The notes: generated from the letters alone by a model not told the origin. A stretch of DNA of 64,000 bases from Dehalococcoidia bacterium (GCA_965262725.1 OZ253555.1:320001-384000); one strand, 5' to 3'. Shown: positions 7,312-56,131, numbered from the stretch's first letter. Made by a program: numbers and translations.

Positions 7312-7355
7312 TCCCAAGCAGAGGGTCGCGGGTTCGAATCCCGTCTCCCGCTCCA
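7312..7355 (+). tRNA. 3' half of tRNA-Gly(CCC); att-site fragment, not an intact gene
   Basis: TCCCAAGCAGAGGGTCGCGGGTTCGAATCCCGTCTCCCGCTCCA has anticodon loop, T arm and CCA, but no acceptor 5' strand or D arm upstream. Integrase gene about 270 bp downstream. Confidence 0.85.
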
Positions 7356-7622
7356 GATCTCTCGCCATCGCGGCGTGAGAGCCCGTTCTTAGGTTCAAAA
7401 TCTCCCATTTCGCCCCCTGACCGGCGGCGGGTGAGCCATCGCCGTCGGGCGGTTCGCTGCTCCCGCGACCCTCTGCCTCGTCGGGCCGCAGATCACGCTC
7501 AGGTCACGTCCACTTCACGCACGGATCACGGTGCGGTCACGAGATTTTGACCGCCCGGGACCGGAGGGGAGAGGGTGATGACGCGAGGCGAGAGCGGCAT
7601 GGAGCAGCGATGGAGGAGTGGG

Positions 7623-8591
7623 ATGGAGCAACTGACGCTGCGGGATCTCATCGGCTACTGGGACTTCCACAACCGCACCGAGGGAAAGTCCCCGAACACG
7701 ATCCGCTGGTACAGCTATGAGCTCGGGAAGTTCGAGCACTTCCTCGTCAGGGAGGGCTCATCGACGCTCATCGCCGAGATCGGCGAACCGCAGGTGCGGG
7801 CCTACATCGCGTACCTGCAACAGAAGCGGAAGTGGGACGACACCGAGTTCTGCCCGACGGCCGAGGAGGGACTCTCGCCCGGCGGCATCCAGAACCGCAT
7901 CCGCGCCCTCAAGGCCTTCTTCAACTGGCTGCACCGCGAGGGCTACACGGAGAGCTACCGCCTCAAGCATCTCGCCAACTACCGCGTCCCCAGCCGGGTC
8001 GTCGACGTGCTGACCGAGGCTGAGATAGGCCGTGTGCTCGCCGCCTGCGACACGAAGTCGGACTGGGGAGCGCGCGCCTACGCGATCCTCACGCTCATGC
8101 TCGACTCCGGCCTGCGCATCAGCGAGGTGGCCGGGTTGCGGACCGCGGAACTCGAACTTGACGCCGGATGGCTCAAGGTTCTGGGGAAGGGCGGCAAGGA
8201 GCGGATCGTGCCCTTCGGCACTGCCACTCAGCGGGCGCTCTGGCGCTACCAGCACCACTACCGACCGGAACCGCTGGGCCCCGATGTCTACTTCTTCCTG
8301 ACGCTCGACGGGCGCCCCCTGGGGCGTAGCGCGCTCACGCAGGCGATCAAGCGCGCCGCGATGCGCTCGGGCGTAACGCGTCTGCATCCTCACCTCTGCC
8401 GACACACTTTCGCGACGCGCTACCTGATCAACGGAGGCGACGTCTTCAGCCTCCAGCAGATCCTGGGCCACTCGACGCTGGAGATGGTGCGTCGCTACGT
8501 GAACCTCGCCTCCGCGCACGTGGCCATCCAGCACCGAAAGTTCTCGCCAATGGACCGGATCGCGGGGATGAGGTCGCGGACCAGCGGATGA
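7623..8591 (+). CDS. Tyrosine recombinase/integrase (intact)
   Basis: SGLRISE, KGGKER, HLCRHTFAT, LGH and RRY catalytic residues; N-terminal SAM-like domain. ORF track starts at 7575. Confidence 0.92.
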   Translation: MEQLTLRDLIGYWDFHNRTEGKSPNTIRWYSYELGKFEHFLVREGSSTLIAEIGEPQVRAYIAYLQQKRKWDDTEFCPTAEEGLSPGGIQNRIRALKAFFNWLHREGYTESYRLKHLANYRVPSRVVDVLTEAEIGRVLAACDTKSDWGARAYAILTLMLDSGLRISEVAGLRTAELELDAGWLKVLGKGGKERIVPFGTATQRALWRYQHHYRPEPLGPDVYFFLTLDGRPLGRSALTQAIKRAAMRSGVTRLHPHLCRHTFATRYLINGGDVFSLQQILGHSTLEMVRRYVNLASAHVAIQHRKFSPMDRIAGMRSRTSG

Positions 8592-8873
8592 TGGTCACGC
8601 CACGCGTTCTTGTAGCCATCGGCCGGGGTCGGCGGGAACAAGCACGTCGGCCGATGCCGGCGAAACAGTCGCTGGGGGGTGAATCGGCGCTTCCGAGCAG
8701 GCTCCATCACGCCGCGACAAGCCGATCGACGCAACGTGCGTAACCATCGCCGCGTGTCTCGACGGCACTGGACTAGCCCCGAACGTGTCTTGGTCCTCCT
8801 CGTGGTTGCGTTGGCCGCACTGCTCGTGGCGTATGTGGTGGGAAGTTCCTCCGAACCCACACGGGCCGCGAAA

Positions 8874-9026
8874 CCCAACGGTTGTTGAGTTCGCCGCCAG
8901 CCGTCCCAGCCTGTGCCACCACCTCGCCTTGGAGCCCTCTCTGAACCTGATATGACGGGCTCACGTGCCGTTCCGTCCTGACGCATCCTGCTCCGTTGCG
9001 CCACGCATGCCTACGAAATGCCTACG
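8874..9026 (-). repeat. att-arm module with tentative tRNA-Leu(CAA) anticodon-arm core
   Basis: cccaacggttgttgagttcgcc resembles 42059 cccaacggtttttgagtttcgcc; ends in tandem ATGCCTACG (9007, 9018). Confidence 0.55.
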
Positions 9027-9302
9027 GAGACGAGCCCCCCTTGGTCGCGGCTCTGCCGCTGCCGTCTGTTCTCACCACCGGGCAAACATCGGCATGAGTG
9101 CTCAGCTGTACGTAGCGATGGGTTGTCTGGCGGAGTGCGCTCTCGCTGCACAATGGCGCCCACGCTCGGATGGCCTGGGCGGGGAGCTTGAGTAGATTCC
9201 GGCCCCGCCTGTTGCAACCATGCTGGTCGTTGTCGAATGTGGCGACTCCTCACCGACCCCGACCCCGACCCCAACGGCAACGCCAACATCGACGCGGGTG
9301 CT

Positions 9303-9493
9303 ACCTCCACACTGCCAGGGCGCTAAGCTCGATCCTGCCCGATCCCATGCGGTCCCGCTGAGTGCCGACCAATCCTGTTTGTTCGGCTATTGCCGAGGGT
9401 GGTGTTGTCTTCTGTACCGCCCCGTCCCAGGCCGTACCACCCAACATGTACCCAAGATGTACCCACCGAAGCGGAACTGACCGGCCCCGGACG
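9303..9493 (-). repeat. att-arm module, tRNA-Ala(GGC) family, with truncated core
   Basis: acctccacactgcca core followed by about 170 bp shared with 35258, 44428 and 54542; tandem ATGTACCCA at 9446 and 9457. Confidence 0.85.
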
Positions 9494-9862
9494 GCGGGCC
9501 ACTTCTCATGAGAGTCCAACGACGTGCTGTTCGTGCGATCGCCCGTGGCCACCCAGGCTCCAGAGTTGCGCGGCAATTACCTCAAGGTCCAAGGAAGTCG
9601 TGCGCGGCTTTCAAACTGGCGGGCAGAGCTCAAGCGGGCCGCTCGGCTGGCGCCCGTGGGACGTGGCGAAGATGAAGTCGTTTCGTGTGTCCGAGTTCAC
9701 CTTCAAGGGTAGCCGCCCTGGCTATGTCCGGGGTGACTCGGATATGCACCCCGTGCACTGCGAGTTCTAGATCGTATGGAGCGCCTCACTCCAGTTCACT
9801 GATGTGGTTTCTGCGTTGAAGGCAGAGCCGGATCAGGGAGGGAGGAGGCATGCAGGAGCAAG

Positions 9863-10095: not shown

Positions 10096-10710
10096 AGCTG
10101 TGCAGAACAGGCTGCGCAAGGCAACACGTATCGGTCCGACCCGTTACCATGATCTCGTGAAATGTACGATGAACGATGTGCAATTCGCAGAGCACGCTCG
10201 CAAACAATGGAGAAGGAAGTTTGAGTAGGTGAATCAAGTGAGCCGCACAGCAAGGGACTAGGGAAACTTACAGTGAGCAAGACGACGGTGACTATACTCG
10301 TGTATGTAGAATCTGATGATCCTTGGACTGCACCCACCATCAGGGGTGATGGCGGTCAGTACTTCTCCCTTCCAGGCGCCTCTTTCGAGGAAACAGTCGG
10401 CGCACTCCGTGAGGCAGGCTTTGAGTCTCACCAAGGGCCGCAAGCGAAGCGGATTCCCTCGCCACACTAGAGTCCACATGCAGCTAGGTGGTGATATTCC
10501 GTAGAGCTGAAGAGGCAGCGGCCAAGGGAGTATGGAACAGATATTTGTCGCGCTATAGCGGCAAGGGACCGGCGTCCGATGCGACTCCCGGTCCCCTAGG
10601 CTCGCGGCTCGTAGGAAGCTGTGGATCGGCAGAGACGAGTTGGTGAGAACGGGATTGACTCTCGCTTACCTGGGCCCGTTCTCCCCGTCTAAGACGCGAC
10701 CCCGGTTGTC

Positions 10711-11420
10711 GAGCGATATACTACAAAGCCTGGGAGGACGACTTCGCGAGCGACCCGCTGCTCGCGATCATCGCCCAGGTCCGCGAGCGCCTCGGCGAGG
10801 GCTTCGCGGAGCGGGTTCGGAGCGTCGTGGAGGCGGCGGGCGCTCTGCTCTACCAGGCGGTGTCGGCCGCCTCGCTCCTCGGCGCCGGGATATCCCTCCG
10901 GCCGCTCCCGGCGGAGAGCGATCGCTCCGCCTCGGAGAGGCTCGACACCTACGATGCGAAGAGGGCAGCGACGGAGAGGCTCAGGGAGACTCTGCCGTGC
11001 CTAGCGTCCGACGTCCGGGAGGAGACCGCCCACCCGCTCGTCTTCATCATCGGCGAGCTCGACCGGTGCCGGCCGACCTTCGCGATCGCGCTCCTGGAGC
11101 GAGTCAAGCACATCTTCGACGTGCCCGACGTCGTCTTCGTGTTCGGGGTCAACCGCGTGGAGCTCACGCGCTCGGTGGAGTCGGTCTACGGCGCGATCGA
11201 GGCACGGACGTACCTCCGGCGCCTCTTCGACATGGAGTTCGTGCTCCCCGATGCCGACCCGATGCGGTTCTGCCTCTACCTGCTGCACCGCTACGGGCTG
11301 GACGCCTTCTTCTACGAGCTGAGCACCCGGGCGTCACCTCACCGAGTTCGAGACGATCTTCGAGTACCTGCCCGTGGTGGTCGACGACCTGGGTCTCTCG
11401 CTTTGCGGGGACATGACCAC
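10711..11420 (+). pseudogene. KAP-family P-loop NTPase fragment, paralog of 52613-54090
   Basis: FIIGELDRCRPTFAIALLERVKHIF nearly identical to the 52613 copy; lacks Walker A region; Walker B D>G. Confidence 0.85.
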
Positions 11421-11816
11421 TGCGGGCCGAGTTGCGGCCCGTACCTCGAGGCCGAGGCGATCCGTGTCTGAGGACCGGGCTTGGGACCTGTATAGGCGCG
11501 CCGCTCGAATCCTGGAGGGTTGCGTATCGCACGCACGGGGTCGCTTCATCGACTGCGCGAGGAATGGTGAGTGCGACTCCGAAACGGGTAGAGAACCTCC
11601 CCGCCGGCCGTCGCCACGAGTTCAACCGGGACTCCGAACACGGGCTCCAGCACCGAGCGGCCTCCGACGACCGCAAGTCCCAGAGGTCATCCTCGGCTGA
11701 CGAAACGGAAAATGCGCATACACATCTTGACAGGTCAGTCCTCGCCCGAAGACCATAGTAATTCCGCCATAGGGCGGCCTTGTCGGGGCCGCTACCGGGC
11801 GCACGGAGCCAAAGCA

Positions 11817-11978
11817 ATGCAGAAGCTCGATGCAAACGCGCTAATGCGAGACGTACTCACCGAGCTTGAAGACCTGCCCGAGGGTCTTGAACAAGATGTG
11901 CTGGCACTGGTGGATTCGGCTCCAACTTCACGGTGGGAGAAGCTGCGGGACCTCTTCTTGGATGTGTCGCGTGACTGA
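11817..11978 (+). CDS. Small acidic hypothetical protein (53 aa), overlapping the next gene's start
   Basis: GGAG RBS then MQKLDANALMRDVLTELEDL...; stop overlaps GTG 11971. Confidence 0.6.
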   Translation: MQKLDANALMRDVLTELEDLPEGLEQDVLALVDSAPTSRWEKLRDLFLDVSRD

Positions 11979-14262
11979 ACGAATCACATCGATCGCTCTA
12001 CAAGCCTTCCGTGGTGTTCGGGCAACCCTATCCATCGATTTGGCGCCTGGGCGCAGCTGCGTACTCCTAGGAGACAACGGAACGGGGAAGAGCACGCTAG
12101 CCGATGCGATCGAATGGTACTTCAATGGTCGAATCGCATTCCTCGCGAAGGAAGGCCGCAGCGAAGGTATTCGGCATCGGGGAGCATCGAGTGACCTCGT
12201 CACCAAAGTCAAAATCTGCACTAACGGATCACTAGGCGGAGTCGCTACTCCGGACACTTCCGCACGTCCGGCAGTGTTGAGTGTTGGACGTTCAGAATTG
12301 ATGATTCTCCGGGGTCGTACGCTTGCCGACTTCGTGGACAAGACGAAGGGGGAGAAGTGGAAGGCTTTTTCGGAACTGTTGGGGCTCGAGGCTATCGATC
12401 GGGTACGCCTCGATCTGCAAAGGGCAAGGAACGATCTAGACGACCAAGCGCAGCGTGCGAGCACTGAACTCTCTGAGAAGCGAGCGGTCTTAAGCGAGAT
12501 GGGCACGGGCGCGTCGGAGGAAGGCGTCTATTCCGCGATAGTCGCAAAGTGCGAGGCGGCCGGCGTCCGGTCACCTGACACTCTCGACCAAGCTCTCACT
12601 TCCGAATGGCGCAAGACCGCTGTGCCCGATGGTTCCACGGAGGAGCGCGTAGTTGCCCTGCGAGGCCTGCTGGCAGAATCGCGCGAAGCCGCGAAGAAGG
12701 CGATTGCGTTGGATCGGGTCGAGGACTGGAACGAGTTCGTCAGTAGGGAACGCGGAGACCAACTCCGTCTAGGCGTCTACAGGGCAGCCGACTCTTTGCT
12801 GCGCTCAAGCCACGCCCGAGATGGAGAGTGTCCGCTTTGCAAACAGCCACTTGGTCTCATAGTGCTTCGTGAGAGTGTGGCTACGGAGCTCCGCGAACTG
12901 GAAGGTGCAGCTGAAGCGCTGGAAGCCGAGCGACGGACGGCCCGCGGCCTTGTCGAGGCTCTACGCGAGGCCGCGCAGCGCCGAGCACGCATCGTCAGCC
13001 GCGCACTCGCACAGGGAGTGAGACTGGCACCGCCGCCCACGGTTTCGCACGATCACCTTGCTCGGAGCATCGATGAACTCTCTGAGATCGACCGCTCGGT
13101 TATCGAACCATGCCTAAGTGAATCGGCCACTTGGGATCGCGAGGTGCTAGTGGCGCTGGAGGCAGCGATCCCTGCGCCCCACGGCGGACACGATCAAGCT
13201 CTGATCGCTCTTGGAGCGCTTCTCGTTGCGGCCACTGCATGGCGCGACGCCGTGCGTCGTGACACTGCGTCCAGTGCCGCGCTGAAGCTCGCCGACCGCG
13301 TCTTCGGCCACTATCAGGCCAAACAGCACGAACAATTCAGGCAGGTCATCGCTCGGATCGCCGGTCGAGTGGCGGAGATCTACCACTTCCTGCATCCGGA
13401 AGAGGGGATCGGTGCAGTTACCATAGAGACTGTTGGGGCCAAGGGAGCCGAGCTAGCCGTCGAGTTTCACAGCAAGAAGGAGATGCCGCCGCATCGTGTC
13501 TTGAGTGAATCGCACCTGAATTCGCTAGGCATTGCGCTGTTTCTTGCGATGGCCGAGACGTCGAACGACCAGATTGGCTTCCTGGTACTGGACGATGTCG
13601 TCAATAGCTTTGATCGCGAACATCGCGGGCGCCTTGCGGAGTTGCTAGTCGACCAATTCAGTGAGACCCAGTTGATTGTCCTTACTCATGACGAGCAGTT
13701 CTTCACTCGGATTTCTCTTAGAGCGCCATCTTGGGTCCACGAGCGGTTTACTTCTTGGTCATACAACGATGGTCCGCGTACACAGCGCTACACCGGAGAT
13801 CGAATGCTCATGGAGGCGAACGAAGCACTAGAAGGCGGCGACCGCGCTGGTGCAGCGCAGAAGGGGCGGCGAGCGCTCGAGGAGCTACTCCAGGAAGCAT
13901 GCGAACGGTTGGAGGCGCTGCTCCCGTTCCGGAGGGGACAGCACAACGATCTTCGACCGGCCGTAGAGGTACTCGGCGGGCTTCGGAGAACCCTGAAGGA
14001 TCGCGCGAGATCGCTATACGCCCAACTCAACCCGCTACTACAGCACCTCGAAGCAGATCTGCAGGCCAGCCTTAATGTGGAATCTCACGCCAGCCCGGGA
14101 AGCACATCCAGTCAGGAAGTTCGCGACGCTCTAGTGCGGATCGCCGAGCTCCGTGAGTCGTTCACTTGTGCAGAGTGTGGTACGCGCGCCTGGTACGCCG
14201 GCTCGCCCGATGCATCGCGATGCAAGTGTGGTCAACATCAGTTCCCACCTGTGGACAGTTGA
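11971..14262 (+). CDS. Rad50/SMC-like ABC ATPase with zinc hook and C-terminal HEPN-like region (RloC-like)
   Basis: Walker A GDNGTGKS, CPLC hook, LSESH signature, LVLDDVVNSFD Walker B, LTHD H-loop, C-terminal LNVESH and CAEC...CKCG. Confidence 0.8.
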   Translation: MTERITSIALQAFRGVRATLSIDLAPGRSCVLLGDNGTGKSTLADAIEWYFNGRIAFLAKEGRSEGIRHRGASSDLVTKVKICTNGSLGGVATPDTSARPAVLSVGRSELMILRGRTLADFVDKTKGEKWKAFSELLGLEAIDRVRLDLQRARNDLDDQAQRASTELSEKRAVLSEMGTGASEEGVYSAIVAKCEAAGVRSPDTLDQALTSEWRKTAVPDGSTEERVVALRGLLAESREAAKKAIALDRVEDWNEFVSRERGDQLRLGVYRAADSLLRSSHARDGECPLCKQPLGLIVLRESVATELRELEGAAEALEAERRTARGLVEALREAAQRRARIVSRALAQGVRLAPPPTVSHDHLARSIDELSEIDRSVIEPCLSESATWDREVLVALEAAIPAPHGGHDQALIALGALLVAATAWRDAVRRDTASSAALKLADRVFGHYQAKQHEQFRQVIARIAGRVAEIYHFLHPEEGIGAVTIETVGAKGAELAVEFHSKKEMPPHRVLSESHLNSLGIALFLAMAETSNDQIGFLVLDDVVNSFDREHRGRLAELLVDQFSETQLIVLTHDEQFFTRISLRAPSWVHERFTSWSYNDGPRTQRYTGDRMLMEANEALEGGDRAGAAQKGRRALEELLQEACERLEALLPFRRGQHNDLRPAVEVLGGLRRTLKDRARSLYAQLNPLLQHLEADLQASLNVESHASPGSTSSQEVRDALVRIAELRESFTCAECGTRAWYAGSPDASRCKCGQHQFPPVDS

Positions 14263-16076: not shown

Positions 16077-16249
16077 CGAATGGGTGCTCCCTGTGGCTGT
16101 GACGTGATTCGGTCAAAAACCATTGTCCCAGCTACAGCGGAGCACCCAACCCCAGCCGCTCGCGCACTCTTCTTCGGTTCGCGGTAGGGATGCCGGTTGC
16201 CCGGCACCCCCCGCACAGATCCGGACGTGCCCTCTCGGGCATCCGGCTC

Positions 16250-17578
16250 CTACCTCAAGTGCGTGACGGCAAATCGCTCCGCAGGCCACGGGTGAAGGAT
16301 GGAGATTCGGGGCCAGTGTTTCTGGCACAGGGCAAGGATGCGCTCCCACGTGAAACGGTCGCGCTGCGACCGCCGTCGGAGAACGCGCAGCCAGAGCCGC
16401 TTCACGAAACGAACAAACTGCGTGAGCGCCGGCGAGCTGGTCGGCACCGCGTAGTAGCCAAGCCACCCACGCAGTACCCGCCCCAGCCACTGCCCCGTCG
16501 TCACGGGGTTGTCGTGCATGCGCCGCCACAACTCGGCCTTGATGGCCTTCAGCGTCCGGCGCATCCGCTTCGCAACGGGCTTGCGCCCCAGCCCGAATCT
16601 CCCGTCGCGTCGGGTCCGGCAGTAGTGCGTCATGCCGAGAAAGTCGAACGTCTCCGGTCGGCCCTCCCCGCGCTTCCGCCTGTTCGCCAGCGCGAACCTG
16701 CCGAACTCAAGTAGACGGGTCTTCTCCGGGTGCAGCTCCAGCCCGTAGGCCGCGAACCGCTCCCGGAGTGCCTTCATGAACCGCACCGCATCGCTGCGGT
16801 GCTGGAACCCCAGGACGAAGTCATCGGCATACCGCACGATGTACGCCTCGCCCCGGACCTCCCGCGGTCGCCACTCGCGCGCAAACCAGTCGTCGAGCAC
16901 GTTGTGCAGGTACACGTTCGCAAGCAGCGGCGATATCGGCGCCCCCTGCGGCATCCCCCGCACGAAATCGACTTCCGGCTCCGCGTCCATGACGCCGACG
17001 CTCAGCCACTTTCGTATCAGGCGCAACACCCGCTGGTCCCCGATGCGCATCTCCAGAAACGACATCAGCCGCCCCCGGTCGATGCTGCCGAAGAACTCCC
17101 GGATGTCCACCTCGACAATCCAGCTGACCTTGCGCCGTTCGACCGCGTAGGCCAGTGCGTCCAGCGCGTCATGCGCCGAACGCCCCGGCCTGAAGCCATG
17201 CGAGAAGCCGTAGTAGCCCGACTCGTAAATCGGGTTCAAAAGATTGTCCACCACCGCCCGCTGAACGATCTTGTCCTCCAGCGAGACGATACCGAGCGGC
17301 CGTATTCCCCCGTCCGGCTTGGGTATCTCTACCCGCCTGACGGGCTTCGCCCGGTACGCTCCACGGTGTACGCGGCCATGCAGGTCGAGCAATCGCTCGT
17401 CCAGCCCGTCCCCGTATTCTCGCCACCTCACCCCGTCCACGCCCGGAGCCGCATCCCGCTTCAACGCGAGATACGCCTCCCGCAGCGCCTCCGGCGTGAT
17501 GTGGTGCAAGAGCGCGGTGAGTTTCTCTCCCGGCTTCCGTTCCACGAACTGCCGTATCCTCTCCGCTCCGGGTGACAC
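16250..17578 (-). CDS. ltrA: Group II intron reverse transcriptase/maturase, no endonuclease domain
   Basis: TALLHHI, APGVDG, RPLGI, PQGAPISPLLAN, YADD and FDFLG motifs. Confidence 0.93.
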   Translation of the reverse strand: MSPGAERIRQFVERKPGEKLTALLHHITPEALREAYLALKRDAAPGVDGVRWREYGDGLDERLLDLHGRVHRGAYRAKPVRRVEIPKPDGGIRPLGIVSLEDKIVQRAVVDNLLNPIYESGYYGFSHGFRPGRSAHDALDALAYAVERRKVSWIVEVDIREFFGSIDRGRLMSFLEMRIGDQRVLRLIRKWLSVGVMDAEPEVDFVRGMPQGAPISPLLANVYLHNVLDDWFAREWRPREVRGEAYIVRYADDFVLGFQHRSDAVRFMKALRERFAAYGLELHPEKTRLLEFGRFALANRRKRGEGRPETFDFLGMTHYCRTRRDGRFGLGRKPVAKRMRRTLKAIKAELWRRMHDNPVTTGQWLGRVLRGWLGYYAVPTSSPALTQFVRFVKRLWLRVLRRRSQRDRFTWERILALCQKHWPRISILHPWPAERFAVTHLR

Positions 17579-17689
17579 CGCACCCCGACTCTGCGTCCGG
17601 ACCGTGCCGGTGCTTTGAGGATTCCTCTCGGTTGGGGCCCTTTGCTCCAGCGACTCCGCCGGGGCTCGCGCCCCCTTCTATGAGGGTCG

Positions 17690-18023
17690 TCTGATCCGCA
17701 AGGCCGACGTGGCGGCCTTCTGCGCCGTTCTACCGATCGCGCCTCCCGTCCGCAGCCCTGTGGTGGTTGTCGGTGCCGATGCGAGTGGTGCCGCCGTCTT
17801 GTCCCCGGGACGTTGTGGTGACCGTGCTTCTATTCGCACTCGTCGAGGGGCCGCTCCGGGCCCGGTGCATGATGATCAGCCTGTCTCCAGGGTGTGGGCG
17901 CTGCCATCTTGTTCCCGTCCTCGTTGGGACCAGGGGGTTCCGCAGTCGCCCGCGTGTCGGCATCTCTCGTATCCTCCGAAGCCCACCGGCCGCCCGGTCG
18001 CCTCGCTCCTCGCGTGCTGTCTG
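17690..18023 (-). ncRNA. Candidate bridge/seekRNA of the IS1111-type element
   Basis: Non-coding 3' end containing paired segments that match the target (17932-37, 17908-14) and the donor junction (17871-75, 17827-33), each pair flanking a stem-loop. Confidence 0.72.
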
Positions 18024-19115
18024 CTACGCCGCCTCGGCCGCGCGCGCGTGGCGCAACGGCTCGTAGACCTCCCCGCTCTTCCAGAGCGCAAGCATCAGCA
18101 CCGCCAGTCGCCTCGCGACCGCGACGACGGCACGCTTCTTCGCATTGCCGGCCCCCGACTCCGCGTAACGCAGCCCCCACCTGCGGAGGTCGCTGTCGGG
18201 GCCGAAGGGGCCCAGGATGTAGTGCGCGGCCTGGTTCAGCACCCGGCGCAGCGCCACGTCCCCTTCCTTCGTGATCCGCAGCTGGGGCTGCCGATCACCG
18301 GAATCGCGGCTCCGGGGCACCAGCCCCAGGTAGGGCCCCACCTCCCTGTTCTTGGGGAAGCGGGCCGGGTCCTCGATGGTGAGGATGAAGGTGAGCGAGG
18401 TGATCGGGCCGACGCCCACGATCTGCCGCAGCGCGCCGGTCTCCGCGTAGCGCTCGCACATCGCGGCGAGCTTCTTGTCGGCCTGGCGGATCTCCCCGGT
18501 CAGCTGCTCGATCTGGTGGAGCACCGGCAGCAGCGCCGGGCCCAGCTCCTCGGGGATGTGCTCTCTGACCGCGCGGTGGAAGGCCGGCGCCGTGCAGCCC
18601 GGAAGCGCCGCGCCCCACGCCTTCACCGCGCCCCGGACGTGGTTGATGAACATCGTGCGCGCCCGGACCAGCGCCTCGCGGCTGCGGAGCACCTGGAGGT
18701 CCGCCTGCGCCATGGCGCTTCGGTGCCGGATGGGGAAGAGGAGCGCCGGGTCGAATCGGCCGAGCCGTGCGAGGTGCTCGGCATCGGAGCGGTCGGTCTT
18801 GCGCTGGCTGCGCGCGATCAGCCTGACCTGCCTCGGGTTGGCGACGATCACGTCGTGACCGAGCTCCGCGAACATCCGGCTCAGCCACGGGGACCGCGGC
18901 CCCACCTCCATCACCACCCGCGCGCCCTGCAGTGGGGTGAGCGCCCGCGTGAGCGCCGCGGTCGTGGTGCGGACTCGCTCCTCCCGCACGATCTCCCCGT
19001 CGCCACCGAGGACGCAGAGGTGACTGTAGCGGTCGCTGACGTCGATGCCGACAGTCACGAGCTCCGCATCCCCCACCTTCCTGCTCTCTGTGACATCTGA
19101 TGTACGCTGTGCCAC
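18024..19115 (-). CDS. IS110-family recombinase (DEDD)
   Basis: VGIDVS, VMEVG, KTDRSDA, IVGVGPIT, YLGLVP...SG and AVVAVARRL motifs; GTG 19115 after AGGAG. Confidence 0.93.
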   Translation of the reverse strand: MAQRTSDVTESRKVGDAELVTVGIDVSDRYSHLCVLGGDGEIVREERVRTTTAALTRALTPLQGARVVMEVGPRSPWLSRMFAELGHDVIVANPRQVRLIARSQRKTDRSDAEHLARLGRFDPALLFPIRHRSAMAQADLQVLRSREALVRARTMFINHVRGAVKAWGAALPGCTAPAFHRAVREHIPEELGPALLPVLHQIEQLTGEIRQADKKLAAMCERYAETGALRQIVGVGPITSLTFILTIEDPARFPKNREVGPYLGLVPRSRDSGDRQPQLRITKEGDVALRRVLNQAAHYILGPFGPDSDLRRWGLRYAESGAGNAKKRAVVAVARRLAVLMLALWKSGEVYEPLRHARAAEAA

Positions 19116-42214: not shown

Positions 42215-42354
42215 GTTCAGGCTCTGAGCAGTTTGCCACTGAGCAGGATGACAAGTGGAAGTTCCCGGTTCGGTCCCATGTCTTGAACCTGCCACGCGAC
42301 CGGACGTGCATCACCGCGCACACACCTCAGTGGCGAGCCGTTTCGCCGGTCACG

Positions 42355-42650: not shown

Positions 42651-42806
42651 AGCTCGACGAGCAGCTCCCACGTCCCACCGCCCGTGCCGTCCTCGGCGGC
42701 CGGTGCGCCCTCGAAGTCCGGTATGTTCGGGCCCCGCGTCGCCGAGGATCGTGCCGCCCTCGGCGAGGGGGAGGGCGTAGGCGGTGTTGTCGCCGAGGGG
42801 AGCGGG

Positions 42807-43667: not shown

Positions 43668-43673
43668 GATCCC

Positions 43674-44309
43674 TCACCCAGCAGCCACGTGCGCACCATC
43701 ACGTGTCGCTGTCGCCGTTCCCATCTGCCTCTCGACGGCCTGGCGGACGAGCCCCATTACATACCGGAGGTCTTCCGCCTCGCTGAGGTCTACCTCCACG
43801 TCGCCGTTCCCCCAGCGACCGAGGTTGGTGACGTCCTTGGCAAGGCCTCTAGGATCGTGCAGCTCATGGAACCGCATATTCAACGCGAGACGGAGCCGCG
43901 AAGCCAGTGGCACCACGTCCACAAAGTTGGTTTCTGCCTTGTACGCAACGTAGTGCTTGAGGAACTCTTCGGTGACCACGGGGCCGAGCGCGAGCACTTC
44001 TTTCCGGAACATGTCGAATAGCGGTCGGAACGGGCTTCCCGGAGCAAGGTACGGGTGATCGTCAATCGTGTACGTCTCAGCCGTACGTCGCTCCGGCTGC
44101 GTCCGGTAGGGGGCGAGGCTCTCGGCCGACAGGTCGACATCCGCCCAGACGCTTGCAGCCACGCTCGCAAGACGTTCTGCCCGGAGCTCAATCGCCTGCT
44201 CGTCCCATCGCTCTAGCGATCCGATGCCCACGTTCAGTCTGAGCGGGCTCACCCTGAAGCCGCCCTCCACGTCGAGCTTCTCGACGAAGGGGCGGTCACT
44301 GTACTCCAC
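43674..44309 (-). pseudogene. C-terminal fragment of a GmrSD-like (DUF262/DUF1524/DUF5655) protein
   Basis: YSDRPFVEK...SPLRLN, YVAYKAETNFVDV and DVTNLGRWGNGDVEV; 5' part missing. Confidence 0.78.
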
Positions 44310-44427
44310 AGGTGTCGTCTCATTGGCGAGCCGCTTCGCCGGTCATGTCCCCGCGTCCGACGCGCCATAGTCGGGCGACGAGGATGACGTCCGGCATGCT
44401 CCGAGGCAGGGACGTTCTCGAACATCC

Positions 44428-44619
44428 GACCTCCACACTGCCAGGGCGCTAAGCTCGTTCCTGTCCGATCCCAAGCGGTCCCGCTGAGTGCCGACTAGTC
44501 CTGTTTGCTCGGCTAGTGCCGAGGTTGGGGTGGTGTGCTGTACCGCCTCGTCCCATGCAGTACCACCCAGCATGTACCCAACATGTACCCACCGCAGCGG
44601 AGGTGACCGGCCCCGGACG
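44428..44619 (-). repeat. att-arm module, tRNA-Ala(GGC) family
   Basis: gacctccacactgcca core plus conserved arm with tandem ATGTACCCA. Confidence 0.85.
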
Positions 44620-44979
44620 CGAGTCCACTCCTCATAAGAGTCGCGGCGCTTCTCGAGCAAGTCTCGCCACCGGTCGGACCGTGGGTGAACGTCCGTACGG
44701 CCGACGGGGCTGGACAATCTCCCCACTGATGTACCCAACACCGGCGGCCGCGCGGCGTCCAATGCCCGGGCTTGGGCTTTGGCGGTTGGTGGGCCCACGT
44801 TGACTGTACTGCGAACTTTCGAGTTGGCCGTGGGGCTGTGAGCCGAGGAGTCAGAGGAACCACCGCAAGACGGAGAGGTCCTCTTCGCGGCCTCACGGCA
44901 TGGTGATCGGCAGGCTCGAATCTTCGCTGGCTCACCAAGGGAGACTGTACGACGAACTTTGTGCTGACCGTGGGCCTTC

Positions 44980-45634: not shown

Positions 45635-45987
45635 GGGGAACGGGGGCGAACTGTGGGGAGCTCAGGGAGACCCTGCGCCACGCCCCCCGCTGCGGAGCGG
45701 GGGGCTACGGGGGCCGCCGCGGCGCGCTCCACGGCCACCGCGCGGTCACCGCTCCCTCCTGCGGTGCCTCCTCATCGGTCGAGCCGGTCTAGGATGACGA
45801 GCACCGACGCCACGCCGCCCGACAGGGCGCCGAACGCGAGGATGGCCGGGCTCAGCTGCGAGGCACGGGGGATGCCCGCCGAATGGCCACAACTTGGCCA
45901 CAATTGTTCGCGCTTCTTAGCGGGTCTAGGCGTCGGGATTGAACCTGAGGAGGTGGCGGTTTGCGGATTCGAATCGAGACCAGCCGC

Positions 45988-48247: not shown

Positions 48248-50044
48248 GTGCTACCTCTTCAGGAACAAGCGATGTCCGCATTGAATGATCAACGCCCTCC
48301 GATCCGTATCACTCGTGTACGTCTATTGAACTTTAAGGGATTCGAGAAGTATTCGCTTACCCTCGACCCGATGACGATACTCGTCGGTCCGAATAACGCC
48401 GGAAAATCCACCATAATCGGTGCGTTTCGGGCGCTAAGTGTTGCTTTGCGCACGGCGCGTGCGCGCAGGCCCGTGATATTGCAGCGAGGCGATCGTAGCC
48501 AACGCGGATACCGAATTCCGACCGAGGGAATCCCGATCTCCGTCGAGAACGCTCAGCATAACTATTCGGATCAGGACGCCGTTGCGGAGTTCGAGCTTTC
48601 GAACGGCCGAACGCTTAGTTTGCTTTTTCCCCCCGGCAGAAGTTGCTCGCTAGTAGTTGACGCCGATGGGCCAATCATTAGAACTGTTGCCGATTTCAAG
48701 CATCACTTTCCAATTGATGTTGGCGTAGTACTTGTGTTGGGTCCGGTGGAACATAATGAGCAGGTCGTGGAAGACCAAACGCTGCAGCGCAATCTTCAGA
48801 CTCATCGCGCCTCAAGGCATTTTCGGAACTATTGGTACCGAAGCAGTAGGGACGAATTCCAGGCATTCCGGCACGCAGTCATGAGCTCATGGGATGACGT
48901 GGATATCGAATTCCGAGAATTGTCGTTCGGTTCAAGCGCTCCCGCCGTCGTACACATGATGTGTACGGAAAGGCGCATGACGCGAGAACTCTATTGGATG
49001 GGCTTCGGCTTTCATGTTTGGCTGCAGATCATGACACATGTGTTGAGAGCACGCGACGCGACTATTCTGGTGATCGATGAGCCTGAGACCTATCTGCACC
49101 CCGCGCTACAGCGGCACCTCCTGGGTGTCCTTCGCGGCGCGGGACCTGACTGCTTACTGGCTACGCACTCCTCGGAGCTTGTTGGCGACGCCGAGCGCAC
49201 CGAGATCGTCCTCGTCGATAAGGCACGACAATTGGGCAAGAGGCTTGGCTCTGGTGCCCACGGTGATGCGCTTGATGCTCTTGGCTCTAGGTTCAACTTC
49301 GCCCTCACGGATGTCTTGCGCCACCGTGCGGCCATCCTTGTGGAGGGGGAGACTGACTTGAAGCACCTCAAGTTGCTGGGGAGTCGTCTGTCGCCTGCAG
49401 TGCTCGGCGGCACGAGAATCCCGCCACTGATCCCCCTTGGAGGACATCGACCTGACGACGCGCGAGACATTGCACGGGCCATGAAGACACTAGTGGGGCC
49501 CGATGTCCGGCTCGCCGTCGTGCTTGACCGTGACTACCGGTCGGATGAAGAAATCGAGGCGCTTGAGGCTGCGCTGCGCGAGGATTTTCGTATAGCTCAT
49601 GTTCTCTGGAGGAAGGAACTTGAGAATTACTTCCTAACCCCTAGTTTGATCGAGAGGACGCTTCGAGCACGGAACGATGAGGAAAGCAGCAGCCTTGACG
49701 TCGTATCGCTTCTGCGATCGTTAACCGACGACTTGCACGCGGTGGCCCAGGGTCAGTGTGTGGCACAGCATCTCGCCTATGGCGCGAGGACGAGATCCGG
49801 AGTGGACCCTGCTACCCTGAGCCAGGAGGCTCTCGAGCGCTTTCGTATCCGCTGGACGACGCTCGACAGCCGCCTTGAACTCGTCTCAGGGAAGGATCTT
49901 CTACGACGACTGAATGCTGCGCTTCAAGAGCAGGGGAGGAAAGCCCTCACGATGCCGCAGCTGACAAGATGGATGACGGGGAATGACATCCCACGTGAGA
50001 TGATGACGCTCCTGCGCGAGCTTGACGTGCTGAACCCTCTCTAG
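48248..50044 (+). CDS. OLD-family ATP-dependent nuclease (ABC ATPase + TOPRIM)
   Basis: GPNNAGKS, IDEPETYLHP, ATHS, LVEGETD, LDRD and ELENY motifs. Confidence 0.88.
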   Translation: MLPLQEQAMSALNDQRPPIRITRVRLLNFKGFEKYSLTLDPMTILVGPNNAGKSTIIGAFRALSVALRTARARRPVILQRGDRSQRGYRIPTEGIPISVENAQHNYSDQDAVAEFELSNGRTLSLLFPPGRSCSLVVDADGPIIRTVADFKHHFPIDVGVVLVLGPVEHNEQVVEDQTLQRNLQTHRASRHFRNYWYRSSRDEFQAFRHAVMSSWDDVDIEFRELSFGSSAPAVVHMMCTERRMTRELYWMGFGFHVWLQIMTHVLRARDATILVIDEPETYLHPALQRHLLGVLRGAGPDCLLATHSSELVGDAERTEIVLVDKARQLGKRLGSGAHGDALDALGSRFNFALTDVLRHRAAILVEGETDLKHLKLLGSRLSPAVLGGTRIPPLIPLGGHRPDDARDIARAMKTLVGPDVRLAVVLDRDYRSDEEIEALEAALREDFRIAHVLWRKELENYFLTPSLIERTLRARNDEESSSLDVVSLLRSLTDDLHAVAQGQCVAQHLAYGARTRSGVDPATLSQEALERFRIRWTTLDSRLELVSGKDLLRRLNAALQEQGRKALTMPQLTRWMTGNDIPREMMTLLRELDVLNPL

Positions 50045-50256: not shown

Positions 50257-51006
50257 GTGCATGTGTACGCGAGTTCGACCGACGAGTTGTCCGGCGACGC
50301 GGTCCTGTGGAGGTACATGAGCTTCGCGAAGTTCATGTCGATGCTCGACAGCAGAAGCCTCTTCCTCTCGAGCATTGCGAGCGTCGACGACCAGTTCGAG
50401 GGGTCGCTGCCCCGCGGCAACGTCCTTCTGCACAGGTGGCTCAGGGAGCGCGAAGCGTCGGCGGACTCGGAGAGAGGGTCACCAGACATCGAGGAGTTTG
50501 CGAGGCGCCGGAGACGCTCCGTCGTCGTGAACTGCTGGCACCGCTCGGAGCACGAGTCCGTGGCCATGTGGAGGCTATACGCGGGAGGGCGGGAAGGCGT
50601 CGCCGTCAGGACGACCGCTGCGGATCTCCGTGGGTGCTTCCTGGAGAGTCCGCCGACGTTCGTACTCCCCGTCCGCTACATCGACTTCGACGAGGATACT
50701 GTCGACGAGATCAACGACTTCCCCCGCTACCTCGTGAAGAGGAAGCCTTTCGAGTTCGAGTCCGAGGTGCGGGCGATCAAGTTCGACGTGCCCATGAAGG
50801 ATGGAGAGATAGACCGCTCGCCGGAGTCCTATCGGCGGCCTGGCGTCCGGAACAAGGTCGACCTGGGCCTGCTCATGGGGGAAGTGATCGTCGCACCGGG
50901 AGCTGGCTCGTGGTTCTTCGAACTCGTCACGGAAGTCACGGCCCGGCACGTCTCCGGCGTGGCAGTTCGCCGCTCGTCCCTCGACTGGCAGCCAGTGTGG
51001 GGCTAG
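50257..51006 (+). CDS. DUF2971-like protein
   Basis: LWRYMSFAKF, NCWH, ESVAMWRLY and KRKPFEFESEVR motifs. Confidence 0.78.
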   Translation: MHVYASSTDELSGDAVLWRYMSFAKFMSMLDSRSLFLSSIASVDDQFEGSLPRGNVLLHRWLREREASADSERGSPDIEEFARRRRRSVVVNCWHRSEHESVAMWRLYAGGREGVAVRTTAADLRGCFLESPPTFVLPVRYIDFDEDTVDEINDFPRYLVKRKPFEFESEVRAIKFDVPMKDGEIDRSPESYRRPGVRNKVDLGLLMGEVIVAPGAGSWFFELVTEVTARHVSGVAVRRSSLDWQPVWG

Positions 51007-51300: not shown

Positions 51301-51353
51301 CCACCCGCCCCCGCAACAGGAACCGAGCTTTCTGAAGGAGGTAAGAGAGCAGG

Positions 51354-52612: not shown

Positions 52613-54090
52613 ATGGCGCAGCGGACCGACCCCACCGACGCCTCGCCCGAGCGGCCCGCGCTCGCGCTCCCCGAACGGGAGCCCGACCCTGGGAACCCCT
52701 GGTCCGACGACATGCTCGATCGCAGAGCGATCGGAAAGCGCCTGACGAACATCGTCTCATCGCAGAAGGCGCCCTTCGTCATCAGCGTCGACGGCCGCTG
52801 GGGGACCGGGAAGACCTTCGTGCTGAAGCGCTGGGCGCAGGAGCTGCGCACATGCGACCCCGGCTGGCGGGCGATCTACTACAACGCCTGGGAGGACGAC
52901 TTCGCGAGCGACCCGCTGCTCGCGATCATTGCGCAGGTCCGCGAGCACCTCGGCGAGGGCTTCGCAGAGCGGGTCCGCAGCGTCGTGGAGGCGGCGGGCC
53001 CCCTGCTCTACCATGCGGTGTCGGCCGCCTCGCTCCTCGGCACCGGGATGTCCCTCCCGCCGCTCCCGACGGAAGGTGATCGCCCCGCCTCGGAGAGGCT
53101 CGACGCCTACGATGCGAAGAGGGCGGCGACGGAGGAGCTCAGGAAGACCCTGCGGCTCCTGGCGTCCGACGTCCGGGAGGAGACTGGCCACCCGGTCGTG
53201 TTCATCATCGACGAGCTCGACCGGTGCAGACCGACCTTCGCGATCGCGCTGCTGGAGCGGGTCAAGCACATCTTCGACGTACCCGATGTCGTCTTCGTGT
53301 TCGGGGTCAACCGCCACGAACTCACGCGCTCGGTGGAGTCGGTCTACGGCGCGATCGAGGCGGGGACGTACCTTCGGCGCTTCTTCGACATGGAGTTCGT
53401 GCTCCCCGAGGCTGACCCGATGCGGTTCTGCCTCTACCTGCTGCACCGCTACGGGCTGGAGGCCTTCTTCTTCGAGCTGAGCACGCGCGCACGCGGCAGG
53501 GTCACCTCACCGAGTTCCAGACGATCTCCGAGTACCTGCCCGTGGTGGTCGGCGACCTGGGTCTCTCGCTCCGGGACATGGACTACTGCGTCCGGCTGCT
53601 GGCCCTGGCGGCGGGGGACCTCGAGCAGGGTGAGACGCTCCATCCGGCGCTCTTTGTCGTCCTCGTCGCGGTCAAGATCGACGACCCGCAGCTCTACCGC
53701 CGCTTCGTCGACGGCACCGCCCGCGGCGCGGAGCTCATCGATCACCTCAACGAGCGCCGACGGCGGACCCGCGCCGGCAGCGGCCGGTACCGGACGCGCG
53801 AAGAAGGGCGCATCCTCGACCTCGTGGAGGCCGCCGTCTACTGCGCGGACGATGCCGGCATCACCCAGACGCAGCTGGAGCTGCGGCTGCGGGGCGCCGC
53901 CCCGACGCTGCCCGACTACCTCTCCTCGGAGACGGCGGAGCTCGATCGCGAGGTCCCCATGGACCGCGAGCGCCTGAGTCACCTGGAGACCATGGTCCGC
54001 AGGTGCGCCACCGATCCCGCCCGGTACGGCGTCAGTCGCAGGTACTTGGCCGGGACGATCGACCTCTACTCTGGTCCGGGGGGGCGGTGA
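52613..54090 (+). pseudogene. KAP-family P-loop NTPase, frameshifted near 53505
   Basis: GRWGTGKT, YNAWEDD and FIIDELDRCRP motifs; C-terminus continues in ORF 53542-54090. Confidence 0.87.
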
Positions 54091-54497
54091 CCGCGCGCGC
54101 CTCGTCCCTCGCGGCGCGTCGAGAGCGGGCCTGGCTCGCGACCAGCGAGGGCTTCGTCGTCGGGCACCGCGGAGACGACGTGAGCGCGGCGGGCCCGTAG
54201 CATCGGTACACGGCAGATTGCCGGACGCGCCAGCTGAGTAGCGTCGGCGTTGCTATCGAGCGGGCGGAGATCGCGAGTGCGTGCGATCGTCGGGCTCCAT
54301 CTCGTGCTAGCAAGCGCGATGCCTCCAAAATTCCGGTGTGGAGCACGGAGCGTGTGCCCGCCCGTGTGGCCATCCCCTAGGTTGCGGACGGCAGATTGTA
54401 GAGGTCGAGCCCGGCCATCTGCGCGCGTGCATGTAACCAACATGTACCCGGTTGGCGGCGCTTGCGCGGGGTCAACGCTGGGATTTGAACCTGAAGA

Positions 54498-54541
54498 TGG
54501 TGGACCTGAGGGGGCTCGAACCCCTGACCTCCACACTGCCA
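54498..54541 (-). tRNA. 3' half of tRNA-Ala(GGC) with arms on both sides (attP-like)
   Basis: Identical to 41587-41630; ATGTA(A/C)CC pairs at 54431/54442 and 54670/54681. Confidence 0.88.
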
Positions 54542-56131
54542 GGGCGCTAAGCTCGATCCTGTCCTATCCCATGCGGTCCCGCTGAGTGCCGACCAATCCT
54601 GTCTGTTCGGCCAGTGCCGAGGTTGGTGTTGCCTGCTGTACCGCCTCGTCCCATGCAGTACCACCCAACATGTACCCGAAATGTACCCACCGCAGCGGAG
54701 CTGACCGGCCTGACGGGACCCCTTCGTGAGACCGCAACCGAACCGCGTGAAGCTGCCCCGCTGAGCACGTCCGCGTGATGCTGGGCGACGCGGCCATTCA
54801 ACGCAGTGTGTCGTTCACTATCGAGAGGCCGGTCCTGAGCTGGCCACGCCAATACTCCCCGGGGGAGGCGGGCGCGTTCATGCACACGCTGAAGAGGCAG
54901 ACCGCTTAGCGCAGGACGAGGTCGCGGGCGCTCCAGTTGAATCGTTCGAGCGCGGCGAAGCGGAAGTCATCGTAATACGTCCCCGCCGCCTCCGTACGGA
55001 CGCTCGACGATCTTGCCCGTGAGTCTCCGCAGACGGGCCGTTGGGCGGCTTGGCGGTCGCCCGGAGACCCGGCCGGGACCGGGCCTCATTCGGCTGAGGC
55101 GCGTCTTTGCACGGGCCGATCACGTAGACTCACTGACATGCCATCGCGCCAGCATGAGCAGTGGAAAGGCGCGCTCCTAGACCTGCTCCTTCGGAAGCTG
55201 ACGCCCTGCGCCTACTGCTCGCTCGGGCTTCGTGCCAACCATCCCCCGTGGCACCTCTACGAAGAGCGCTCGATCGCCTCCCAGTTCATCACGTGGAGGT
55301 GTCGTTCCGGCGGACACGACCACCTCTTCGACCTGCTCGACGGAGCCGTCCGCGCCGTTGCCGAACGGCGTCTGTCACTGGAGCAGGGGGGTTACTGCGT
55401 GCCCGACATCACCATGCTCGACGCGCGCGACGAGCCAACGGCGCTGCTTGAGGTCGAGCACACTCATGCGCCGGAGCGCTCGCTCATCGCCGCCGGGGAG
55501 CGCGACATCCCGCTCTTTGTGGTGTCCGCTCCGGCGGACTGGCTGCTCGAGCCCGGCTTCGCCCCGCCCGAAGCCTGGGCCACACAGCCGAGGATCGCAC
55601 CCTGCGCGAGGGGGCGGACGCGTTCAACCGTTCACCGGGCAGCGATCTCAGCCGCCGCTTCGCGTACTCCACCGTCGAGGACGATGACGGCCGCCTCGCC
55701 TCCGGTCGCTACGTCGGCTCCGCGCCCAGCCCCGGCGACCGGCCCCCGTTGCGTGGCCACGCGATCCAGGCCCGAAGCTGCTCGTGGTCGTGTGATCGCG
55801 CGCACGAGGCCCTGAGGCGGCAGTGGCCCGGGCGCTAGGCGCGGGCCCCTCGGCAGAAGGGCGGCGGGGCTCATTCTCAATGGAAAGACGTTCAGGTCGA
55901 TGGGATTCGCTCCTTCTTCGCCGAGTCTGGGTCGGCTGGGACGACAGGGCACGCGACCAAGGGCTTATGAGACCTCCGGAATCGGTGCTGATTGGTCCCG
56001 GGACGTGCGATCTGGTCCCTCTCCAATCCTGAGTCGGGCGGTCGCCGTCACGCCGCGTCCCCTGTCGTACCGCGCTGTGCCGCGGTGTTGATCCCCAAAT
56101 TGATCCCCAATTGCTGCCCTTCTTAGCAATT
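54542..56131. repeat. About 1.6-kb duplicated unit, copy 2
   Basis: Matches 35258-36850; Met-like core at 55952-55974. Confidence 0.9.
55138..55838 (+). pseudogene. Second copy of the nuclease-like gene; one G missing near 55578
   Basis: ctgggcc versus ctggggcc in copy 1; could be a homopolymer sequencing error. Confidence 0.75.

Follow-up and report, generated by a model that had tools for sequence, protein, structure and literature searches.

Polarised att-like modules between defence genes in a Dehalococcoidia genome: probable scars of serial integration at tRNA and other sites

We analysed a stretch of 64,000 nucleotides (the window) from a Dehalococcoidia bacterium (GCA_965262725.1 OZ253555.1:320001-384000), with a G+C content of ~67%, and detected nine related modules of ~200 bases that resemble the attachment (att) sites of tyrosine integrases and lie in one polarity between unrelated genes, many of them related to defence. 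The modules are probably the junction scars, including two complete attP-like sites, of tyrosine-integrase elements that accumulated by serial accretion and then decayed, a reading that we hold with moderate confidence. The module anatomy matches that of tyrosine-integrase att sites: a tRNA 3' piece that starts from the anticodon loop is followed by a long arm and by direct repeats in phase. Segments without integrase are bounded by directly repeated copies of one core (four Ala and three Leu-type cores), and the only unit that has an integrase repeats the module layout.

Repeat finding, self-BLAST, MAFFT and nhmmer recovered all nine modules in the plus orientation, confirming the places and the single orientation given by an earlier interpretation made from the sequence alone (the sequence-only reading). 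The profile of the nine modules returned exactly these nine full-length matches (E 1e-55 to 2e-24) and one truncated copy at 34881-34935. The tandem direct repeat (DR) that had been described at the end of each module was found in all of them, as two 10-11-nt units with an 11-12-bp period and the general form CATG-NN-CCCAA. DR scanning and a DR profile detected 13 such sites, nine in the modules and four solitary (34912, 45883, 54430 and, inverted, 41916), 12 of the 13 being on the plus strand. All but one of the units lack an integrase, in agreement with their earlier description as att-like and mostly integrase-less.

The core edge was defined as the last base of CCAG (Ala modules) or of CCAA (the others). 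From this edge the DR is 126 nt away in each of the five Ala modules and 126-127 nt away in each of the remaining four; the arm had previously been put at 130-170 bp. This arm corresponds to ~12 helical turns and carries same-sense phased GT(A/C)CC boxes. In ungapped in-register comparison the Ala1, Ala4 and Ala5 arms are 88-91% identical to each other and ~51% identical to Ala3 (~50% for Ala3 against the other Ala arms), the Met1, Leu1 and Leu2 arms share 45-50%, and the Ala and Met/Leu groups share 39-41%. Identity between subfamilies exceeds that of shifted registers by z 2.8-6.1 in each case. The modules are one repeat family of two subfamilies with a rigid length, the arm being free of indels between subfamilies that have only 39-50% of bases in common. 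Four Ala cores lie in direct orientation, a number reached in 0 of 100 shuffles. The three Leu-type cores each have a different configuration (X-core-P, P'-core-Y and P'-core-P), and at 54430-54689 and 42008-42211 arm sites flank the core on both sides, as in attP.

The tRNA identity of the cores is clearest for Ala. Read on the minus strand, the Ala 45-mer contains the anticodon loop CUGGCAG, the stem, the T-arm and the acceptor strand with U70, A73 and CCA, and it matches the 3' part of an ARAGORN-called tRNA-Ala(ggc) from a Rhodococcus plasmid. The copies at 41587-41631 and 54498-54542 are identical at 45 of 45 positions beside arms of ~51% identity, as expected if the host gene, not the element, sets the tRNA part. 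The claim that Ala modules begin with a tRNA piece held for the whole 3' half in two of the five; the contiguous tRNA kept in the others is 17 nt (Ala4), 16 nt (Ala1) and 1 nt (Ala2). The Ala crossover would be expected within the block of 16-17 nt, GACCTCCACACTGCCAG, because this block is common to four of the five copies. Among plasmids only the tRNA part of the Ala module found matches (10 records), and among phages nothing matched. On the Rhodococcus erythropolis plasmid NZ_CP050126.1, from an unrelated phylum, a site-specific integrase gene (3104-4372) adjoins the matched tRNA-Ala(ggc).

The Asp piece matches the 3' part of an ARAGORN-called tRNA-Asp(gtc) from a Mycolicibacterium plasmid. 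The Gly stretch matches 295 plasmid/chromid records; the one match checked with ARAGORN does not overlap a called tRNA, and the Gly isotype comes from reading the sequence. Six T-loop motif matches were detected in the window and none of them lies beside the cores that the sequence-only reading had tentatively labelled Met and Leu, labels kept here as names. The set of 72,556 plasmid/chromid records, which does contain matches to the Ala, Gly and Asp pieces, has none to the Met-type region and only three, at chance level and outside the core, to the Leu-type region. The two cores can be aligned to one another (CCAA-G/C-GG-Y-T-NN-TGAG) and to the Ala modules on their arm side; they could represent short blocks of tRNA-like identity or targets other than tRNAs. 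Judged from sequence, the verifiable tRNAs appear to be three, Ala(GGC), Gly(CCC) and Asp(GUC), with one or two putative non-tRNA cores. Of the approximately five tRNA specificities that had been proposed, Ala, Gly and Asp are thus retained and Met and Leu are not, while the match of cores to tRNA genes was obtained for Ala and Asp, through the plasmid tRNAs, and not for Met and Leu. Rfam at a permissive threshold did not report the tRNA fragments, and relaxing the ARAGORN thresholds produced 128 and 543 calls, all noise.

The Leu-type cores (36884-36904, 42047-42075 and 8862-8890) also contain CCG-N(10-17)-CGG and then a run rich in T, which resembles the 3' half of a plus-strand intrinsic terminator. 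A terminator scan flagged only the copy at 36884-36904, and the region has no excess of terminator-like sites (6 against 4.0 +/- 2.2 expected).

Bases 1-7286 carry minus-strand housekeeping genes, alpha-2-macroglobulin and PBP1C (Pfam), and island-like DNA extends from ~7300 to the window end. Within it the segment S4 has a G+C fraction of 0.711, close to the 0.709 of the housekeeping flank, the other long segments having 0.64-0.69, and neither Pfam nor PADLOC detected mobile or defence genes in S4. This segment is probable native chromosome between two islands. On its right it abuts Ala3, at the complete tRNA-Ala 3' half (41587), and the Ala modules at 41587, 44400 and 54498 lie to the right of it. 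This fits the prediction of serial integration into one tRNA-Ala gene, and the proposal that elements had piled up here by integration gained support from it. At the left edge of S4 stands a Leu-type core (36892) with a box and DR on its left and no arm on its right; this core, preceded by an arm, and the direct copy at 8874, followed by one, bracket the 28 kb to the left of S4.

The order of sites from left to right is Gly, integrase, Leu1, Ala1 and 25 kb of cargo with insertion sequence (IS) elements and introns; DR 34912, Ala2, ORF233, Met1, box, Leu-type core and S4; Ala3, Asp, inverted DR, box, Leu2 and 2.2 kb of cargo; Ala4, 1.3 kb, DR 45883 and 8.5 kb of cargo; and DR 54430, Ala5, ORF225, Met2, box, then the type I restriction-modification (R-M)-like genes and beyond.

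We propose that a minus-strand tRNA-Ala gene at the right end of S4 was repeatedly targeted, the half at 41587 being apparently its native 3' half and the start of the Ala stack. Each newcomer would enter the regenerated site and displace the older elements, leading to the stack of Ala3 (41587), Ala4 (44400) and Ala5 (54498). The outermost junction would retain the native 3' half and its flank, and inner junctions would be flanked by the other arm of the previous element. Ala5, which has a solitary DR of the module type 46 nt left of its tRNA piece, is attP-like or an internal tandem junction. The intact tRNA-Ala would then be to the right, past the last module and possibly outside the window. 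The left island would be bounded by direct copies of the putative non-tRNA core CCCAACGGYTKTT (8874 and 36892), with an attP-like copy at 42059. The phased arm array is potentially the docking surface for an arm-binding protein, either an integrase domain or an accessory factor, that would hold the core in the recombination complex. The integrases would have been lost and the order scrambled by subsequent deletions, by the insertion of IS elements and group II introns and by a 1.6-kb duplication, and the defence-carrying segments are probably now fixed or only rarely mobile.

The layout of the Gly-integrase unit follows the order of the modules: a tRNA piece, 134 nt, five phased repeats and the integrase gene directly after. 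Its arm has no detectable homology to the module arms, its repeats (TCACG) differ from the module repeats, and its tRNA piece faces the opposite way, as does the Asp piece and as the sequence-only reading had noted; both pieces are on the plus strand. The finding of a single integrase was likewise upheld: a hidden Markov model (HMM) from integrase relatives detected no second tyrosine integrase among 1104 stop-to-stop open reading frames (ORFs) of at least 35 aa, and among the 116 ORFs within ~1 kb of the modules the only recombinase-like Pfam match was a truncated serine recombinase, whose best NCBIfam match, CcrB, is far under cut-off.

The integrase start is probably ATG 7623, because the relatives are 322 aa. 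The protein has SAM-like core-binding and catalytic domains only, with no arm-binding N-terminal domain. It scores ~180 bits against the XerC/XerD models (cut-offs ~330) and 68.6 bits against the integron-integrase model (cut-off 265), by which it would be classed as Xer-like and not as an integron integrase. The closest relatives are 94-97% identical over 322 aa, the named ones coming from Dehalococcoidia/Chloroflexi metagenome-assembled genomes; for the integrase and PBP1C together the named closest relatives are from Chloroflexi, Dehalococcoidia and Limnocylindria metagenome-assembled genomes. All plasmid matches of the integrase protein are below 35% identity.

PBP1C starts at ATG 7286 on the minus strand, its N-terminus being taken from relatives, only 25 nt from the Gly piece, which leaves no room for the 5' half of tRNA-Gly, and this half is absent beside the piece. 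The Gly piece and PBP1C were brought together by integration at a secondary site or by a later deletion. The PBP1C cluster representative (820 aa, 4 contigs, of which the longest has 6.98 Mb) reads through the Gly piece, and the same junction is therefore present in at least one other assembly. As separate observations, this representative gene model over-extends through the tRNA-Gly fragment, and PBP1C in the window is frameshifted near 7200 (7184-7303, minus) relative to the 100%-identical cluster representative, its N-terminus being in another frame.

Several results weigh against serial integration followed by decay. ARAGORN called no intact tRNA-Ala, tRNA-Gly or tRNA-Asp gene in the 64-kb window. 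Searches of the plasmid and phage collections gave no match to the arm, and an exact-pattern scan of species representatives for the Ala core-arm junction gave two loci, in Plesiocystis and Burkholderia, neither with a module, the Plesiocystis match having neither tRNA piece nor arm. An integrase or its remnant stands beside none of the nine modules, while in tandem arrays a few usually persist. No arm-binding domain is present in the resident integrase, and the binder of the repeats is only predicted. The Gly piece is not a normal tRNA junction. Simple stacking at one tRNA gene does not account for Ala1 and Ala2, which belong to the left island and keep contiguous tRNA identity over 16 nt and 1 nt, respectively. 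Finally, ordinary integration does not yield outward-facing 3' halves of two tRNAs ~185 nt apart, as found for Ala3 and Asp.

Instead of scars, the modules could be live sites of cis-mobilizable integrase-less segments, which an integrase acting in trans excises, shuffles and re-inserts, so that the whole forms an exchangeable defence array; we regard this as unlikely, though far from negligible. The retention of the full core-to-DR length without indel in 9/9 modules and the two sites with arms on both sides are in its favour, as is the proposal (PMC3146451) that integrase-less tandem islands of Dehalococcoides move likewise. The integrases of 94-97% identity belong to five further protein clusters from other assemblies, indicating that this type of element is now circulating. 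No enzyme is matched to the sites, and the resident integrase has repeats of another sequence.

The same question is addressed by the 1.6-kb duplication (35245-36856 and 54529-56137, 94% identical). Its presence at two places with different flanks, with homology that starts inside the Ala core (35245/54529) and ends just past the box (36856/56137), also favours live sites. The modules are nevertheless its least conserved parts, with 87% and 92.5% identity, the ORF and spacer that they enclose having 95-96%. In copy 1 the core is degenerate and the DR carries a deletion, and copy 2 has a frameshifted ORF (ORF225, 55138-55839, the second copy of ORF233, frameshifted after approximately residue 147, with a 1-nt indel at 36290). 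The duplicated modules look like decay, not maintained function, and the load of IS elements and introns, the truncated KAP NTPase and serine recombinase and the frameshifted ORF225 point in the same direction. The two Met modules (36671 and 55952) and the two Ala modules 35243 and 54527 are part of this duplication and are not independent of each other.

The ORF233 family has no Pfam, PADLOC or NCBIfam match; in the atlas its neighbours are hypothetical proteins of phages, and CoiA_N occurs in 14% of the members of one cluster. The direct repeats that flank ORF233 (TCGTGAGACC and TCATGAGACC) are too short for significance. A candidate secondary site, CTCCAAAATTCYGG (35243 compared with 54320), is identical at 17 of 19 positions, but its local alignment score of 28 is one that shuffled sequences also reach (mean 23.7, max 38). 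Separately from the 1.6-kb unit, a second segmental duplication links both islands, the KAP NTPase stretch at 10696-11424 and 52854-53590.

It is rather improbable that the modules are a dispersed family of non-coding repeats, miniature or regulatory, which once took up a tRNA-Ala piece and was then propagated through duplication and homologous recombination, not through site-specific integration. One module pair did arise by segmental duplication, the modules are unaccompanied by integrase, and a tRNA-Ala piece at a fixed distance could come by descent. Descent alone does not predict a tRNA part identical at 45/45 positions beside arms of ~51%, and the depth within the core at which homology breaks differs between copies (45, 17, 16 and 1 nt), as it does where recombination has joined sequences. 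A Leu-type core can have an arm on either side or on both, which also speaks against this explanation, and the Gly-integrase module is what an intact relative would look like. Significant flanking inverted repeats were found for two modules (Ala3, z 5.0, and Ala4, z 3.1), which such a family could account for, but the other seven of the nine have no terminal inverted repeat. The arms have no stable fold, the DNA folding z being -1.65 to +0.89 across 8 folds of 6 modules, two of which were folded on both strands, and their substitutions have no codon-phase bias (e.g., 18/21/26 and 25/17/23).

More speculatively still, the modules could be chained attP-like landing pads, at which armless circles with short cores (e.g., the 1.2-kb ORF233 segment or sets of defence genes) are inserted and exchanged by a trans-acting Xer-like recombinase with an arm-binding factor; we give this a distinctly small chance. 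The near DR would be 33-75 nt left of the core and the far DR 126-127 nt right of it. This explanation was considered because of the right- and left-hand sites that modules share and the Ala3/Asp geometry that ordinary integration leaves unexplained. A second anticodon-loop-like site on the plus strand is present 33-39 nt past the DR in every Ala module: CTCATGAGAG in Ala1, CTCATAAGAG in Ala4, TTCGTGAGAC in Ala2 and Ala5, and the whole tRNA-Asp 3' half in Ala3. All four window occurrences of CTYATRAGAS, a pattern chosen post hoc after the occurrences had been seen, are inside modules and on the plus strand, two of them as the second site and two as the left end of a Met module. Met1 is followed by a Leu-type core, the right-hand site of one module type being the left-hand site of another. 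The proposed chaining would join the end of the Ala type, CTCATRAGAG, which equals the start of the Met type, and the end of the Met type, CCCAACGG, which equals the start of the Leu type. If true, this would be an integron-like cassette platform made from tRNA-derived double-stranded sites in Chloroflexota.

An assembly artefact with chimeric joins at collapsed repeats in metagenome-derived sequence is very improbable: the closest protein relatives are mostly from metagenome assemblies and PBP1C is frameshifted against its 100%-identical cluster representative, but the copies are only 87-92% identical or less and would not collapse, the PBP1C-Gly junction recurs in at least one other assembly, and the regular spacing and orientation are unlike misjoins.

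Other identities of the modules were tried and rejected. Integron attC sites are contradicted by the absence of arm folding and the integron-integrase score of 68.6 against 265 bits, and the earlier term cassette-like, in the integron sense, was accordingly dropped. A miniature inverted-repeat element was rejected, inverted ends being significant in 2/9 modules only. An attP inside the integrase gene, of the SSV/Mx8 type, was rejected from the absence of integrase-HMM matches in ORFs over the arms, where integrase fragments were looked for, and of codon-phase bias. The first 30 nt of the arm were compared by eye with the Rhodococcus tRNA-Ala as a decayed tRNA 5' half, and ~9 of 24 positions agree.

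Table 1. Sites, genes and segments detected in the window.
Feature	Position	Strand	Description
Gly piece	7311-7355	+	tRNA-Gly(CCC): loop CTCCCAA 7311-7317, T-loop motif 7331, T-arm, U73-CCA; single copy
Gly-integrase direct repeats	7491-7541	+	five (G/C)(A/G/T)TCACG, exact 11-bp period; starts 7491, 7502, 7513, 7524, 7535
Tyrosine integrase	7575-8591	+	Pfam Phage_integrase 9e-34 and SAM-like domains; sole one in window
Leu1	8874-9027	+	core CCCAACGGTTGTT, arm, DR 9006-9027; no upstream arm site, X-core-P
Ala1	9303-9514	+	16-nt tRNA-Ala block (edge 9318), 126-nt arm, DR 9445-9465, second site CTCATGAGAG 9505-9514
LmuB-like SMC ATPase	11866-14262		PADLOC
NYN-domain protein	28165-28776		flanks PD-Lambda-4_A-like gene; PADLOC
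PD-Lambda-4_A-like	28948-33009	-	1353 aa, PADLOC 1e-74; N-terminal MqsA-type helix-turn-helix
HNH protein	33187-33930		flanks PD-Lambda-4_A-like gene
Truncated module	34881-34936	+	last ~25 nt of arm and DR ATGGCCACAACTTGGCCACAA; profile positions 160-214, E 6e-4
Ala2	35243-35403	+	degenerate core CTCCAAAATTCTGG (tRNA-Ala piece 35243-35258 degenerate), arm, DR with small deletion; left end of 1.6-kb duplicated unit
ORF233	35851-36552	+	233 aa, PD-(D/E)xK-like motif; cargo of duplicated unit
Met1	36671-36904	+	edge 36679, CTCATGAGAC 36683-36692, DR 36806-36828, box CTTCTTAGCAATTG 36838-36851
Third Leu-type core	36892-36904	+	after Met1 box, no arm beyond; P'-core-Y
Segment S4	36906-41586	.	4.7 kb, core-genome composition; DinB-family, acyl-CoA thioesterase and other genes (Pfam)
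Ala3	41587-41778	-	complete tRNA-Ala(GGC) 3' half 41587-41631 abutting S4, divergent arm, DR 41758-41778
Asp piece	41815-41859	+	tRNA-Asp(GUC), anticodon loop to CCA; 36 nt past Ala3 DR
Inverted DR	41916-41939	inverted	module DR motif; past Asp piece
Leu2	42008-42211	+	box TTCCTTAGCAATTG 42008-42021, core 42059, edge 42063, DR 42190-42211; P'-core-P, attP-like
Truncated serine recombinase	42217-42678	-	153 aa, N-terminal catalytic domain only; Pfam Resolvase 1.9e-18; ends against Leu2 DR
PDC-S18/DUF5655	43674-44309		PADLOC
Ala4	44400-44640	+	17-nt tRNA-Ala block 44428-44444, degenerate T-loop-like stretch before it, arm, DR 44571-44591, CTCATAAGAG 44631-44640
DR-only site	45883-45960	+	DR 45883-45905, box-like CTTCTTAGC, T-arm-like 45935-45945, no arm after
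OLD/GajA-like ATPase	48248-50044		PADLOC
PDC-S31	50257-51006		PADLOC
KAP NTPase, PDC-S20 type	52613-53977; 10696-11424		full gene; 90%-identical fragment; PADLOC
Ala5 region	54430-54689	+	DR 54430-54452, T-arm-like 54481-54491, tRNA-Ala 3' half 54498-54542 (-), arm, DR 54669-54689
Met2	55952-56132	+	edge 55960, DR 56087-56109, box 56119-56132; right end of second 1.6-kb copy
Methyltransferase and specificity-subunit pair, type I R-M-like	56231-58704		PADLOC

The defence cargo that had been reported was confirmed by the PADLOC matches (Table 1), and the cargo of the different segments is unrelated. IS elements and introns make up much of the DNA in between, with DDE_Tnp_1_4, IS110, Mutator, IS21 istA/istB and IS630-like elements and four copies or fragments of group II introns. 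The group II intron stretches 22969-23833 and 60699-61563 (865 bp) are 100% identical, and a third copy, 26991-27598, is ~79% identical. The sole tRNA call of ARAGORN, Ser(tga) at 22535-22616 (-), is within the ORF of a group II intron reverse transcriptase/maturase (22177-23163, RVT_1 + GIIM), and this call is probably spurious. The intron at 16177-19613 is of another class, with a reverse transcriptase at 16250-17578 and an IS110-family transposase (18024-19223) between the D5/6 and D1-D4 Rfam matches, suggesting an IS110 element nested in a group II intron. In S4, the 3' end of a 293-aa ORF contains three tandem 33-bp repeats (40423-40521, 79-82% identical).

If serial integration and decay is the correct explanation, the locus would represent the assembly of a defence island by repeated tRNA-site integration followed by integrase loss, outside the well-studied phyla. 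The indel-free arm of 126-127 bp would be a searchable att-site family and predicts an arm-binding protein. It could help to set the boundaries of island segments in Chloroflexota, whose mobile elements are still poorly mapped. Current concepts are unchanged by it, tandem tRNA-fragment islands, including integrase-less ones, having been described already.

The modules are similar to the attP sites of lambda-type integrases and to the anticodon-loop crossover class of tRNA-targeting integrases, reportedly described by Williams in 2002, in having a core at the anticodon loop, a duplicated 3' half and direct arm repeats at fixed, helically phased distances on either side of the core. Lambda-type integrases use an arm-binding N-terminal domain, which the resident Xer-like integrase does not have. 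The ICESt1-related cis-mobilizable elements of Streptococcus thermophilus are alike in integrase-less segments between direct att sites and in the recombination of an incoming element with a resident att site; for them, the helper element and the excision of composites were reportedly shown experimentally by Pavlovic et al. in 2004, whereas the present locus is known from sequence alone.

The high-plasticity regions of Dehalococcoides contain repeated tRNA-Ala 3' fragments and integrase-less tandem islands (PMC2764846, PMC3146451), with an ssrA repeat present 11 times downstream of ssrA (PMC2764846) and 15 tandem ssrA islands without an integration module, proposed to be cis-mobilizable by accretion (PMC3146451). 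The Dehalococcoides islands are alike in the phylum-level neighbourhood, seen here from the integrase and PBP1C relatives, and in the tandem integrase-less islands, and inversions at inverted fragments are also described for them. They are described there with direct repeats of 19-58 bp and ssrA islands with serine recombinases, whereas we detected an arm of 126-127 nt with phased repeats. Their described cargo is reductive dehalogenases, unlike the defence genes, mixed non-tRNA cores and absence of an intact target gene in the present window.

Prochlorococcus islands have partial tRNAs between successive integrations and degenerate remnants (bioRxiv 10.1101/2020.12.28.424599), and tRNA gene fragments from integrating elements are called pervasive (PMC9897764). 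The tycheposons of Hackl et al. are alike in tRNA-adjacent islands, partial tRNA copies, remnants of fragmented integrases and defence/adaptive cargo. Many tycheposons keep integrases and replication modules, with one tRNA per island; here at least three tRNA types are combined with putative non-tRNA cores, and the modules are integrase-less. Taken together, the locus appears to be a further example of the described tandem islands with tRNA fragments, the rigid conserved arm and the mixture of cores being probably what is particular to it.

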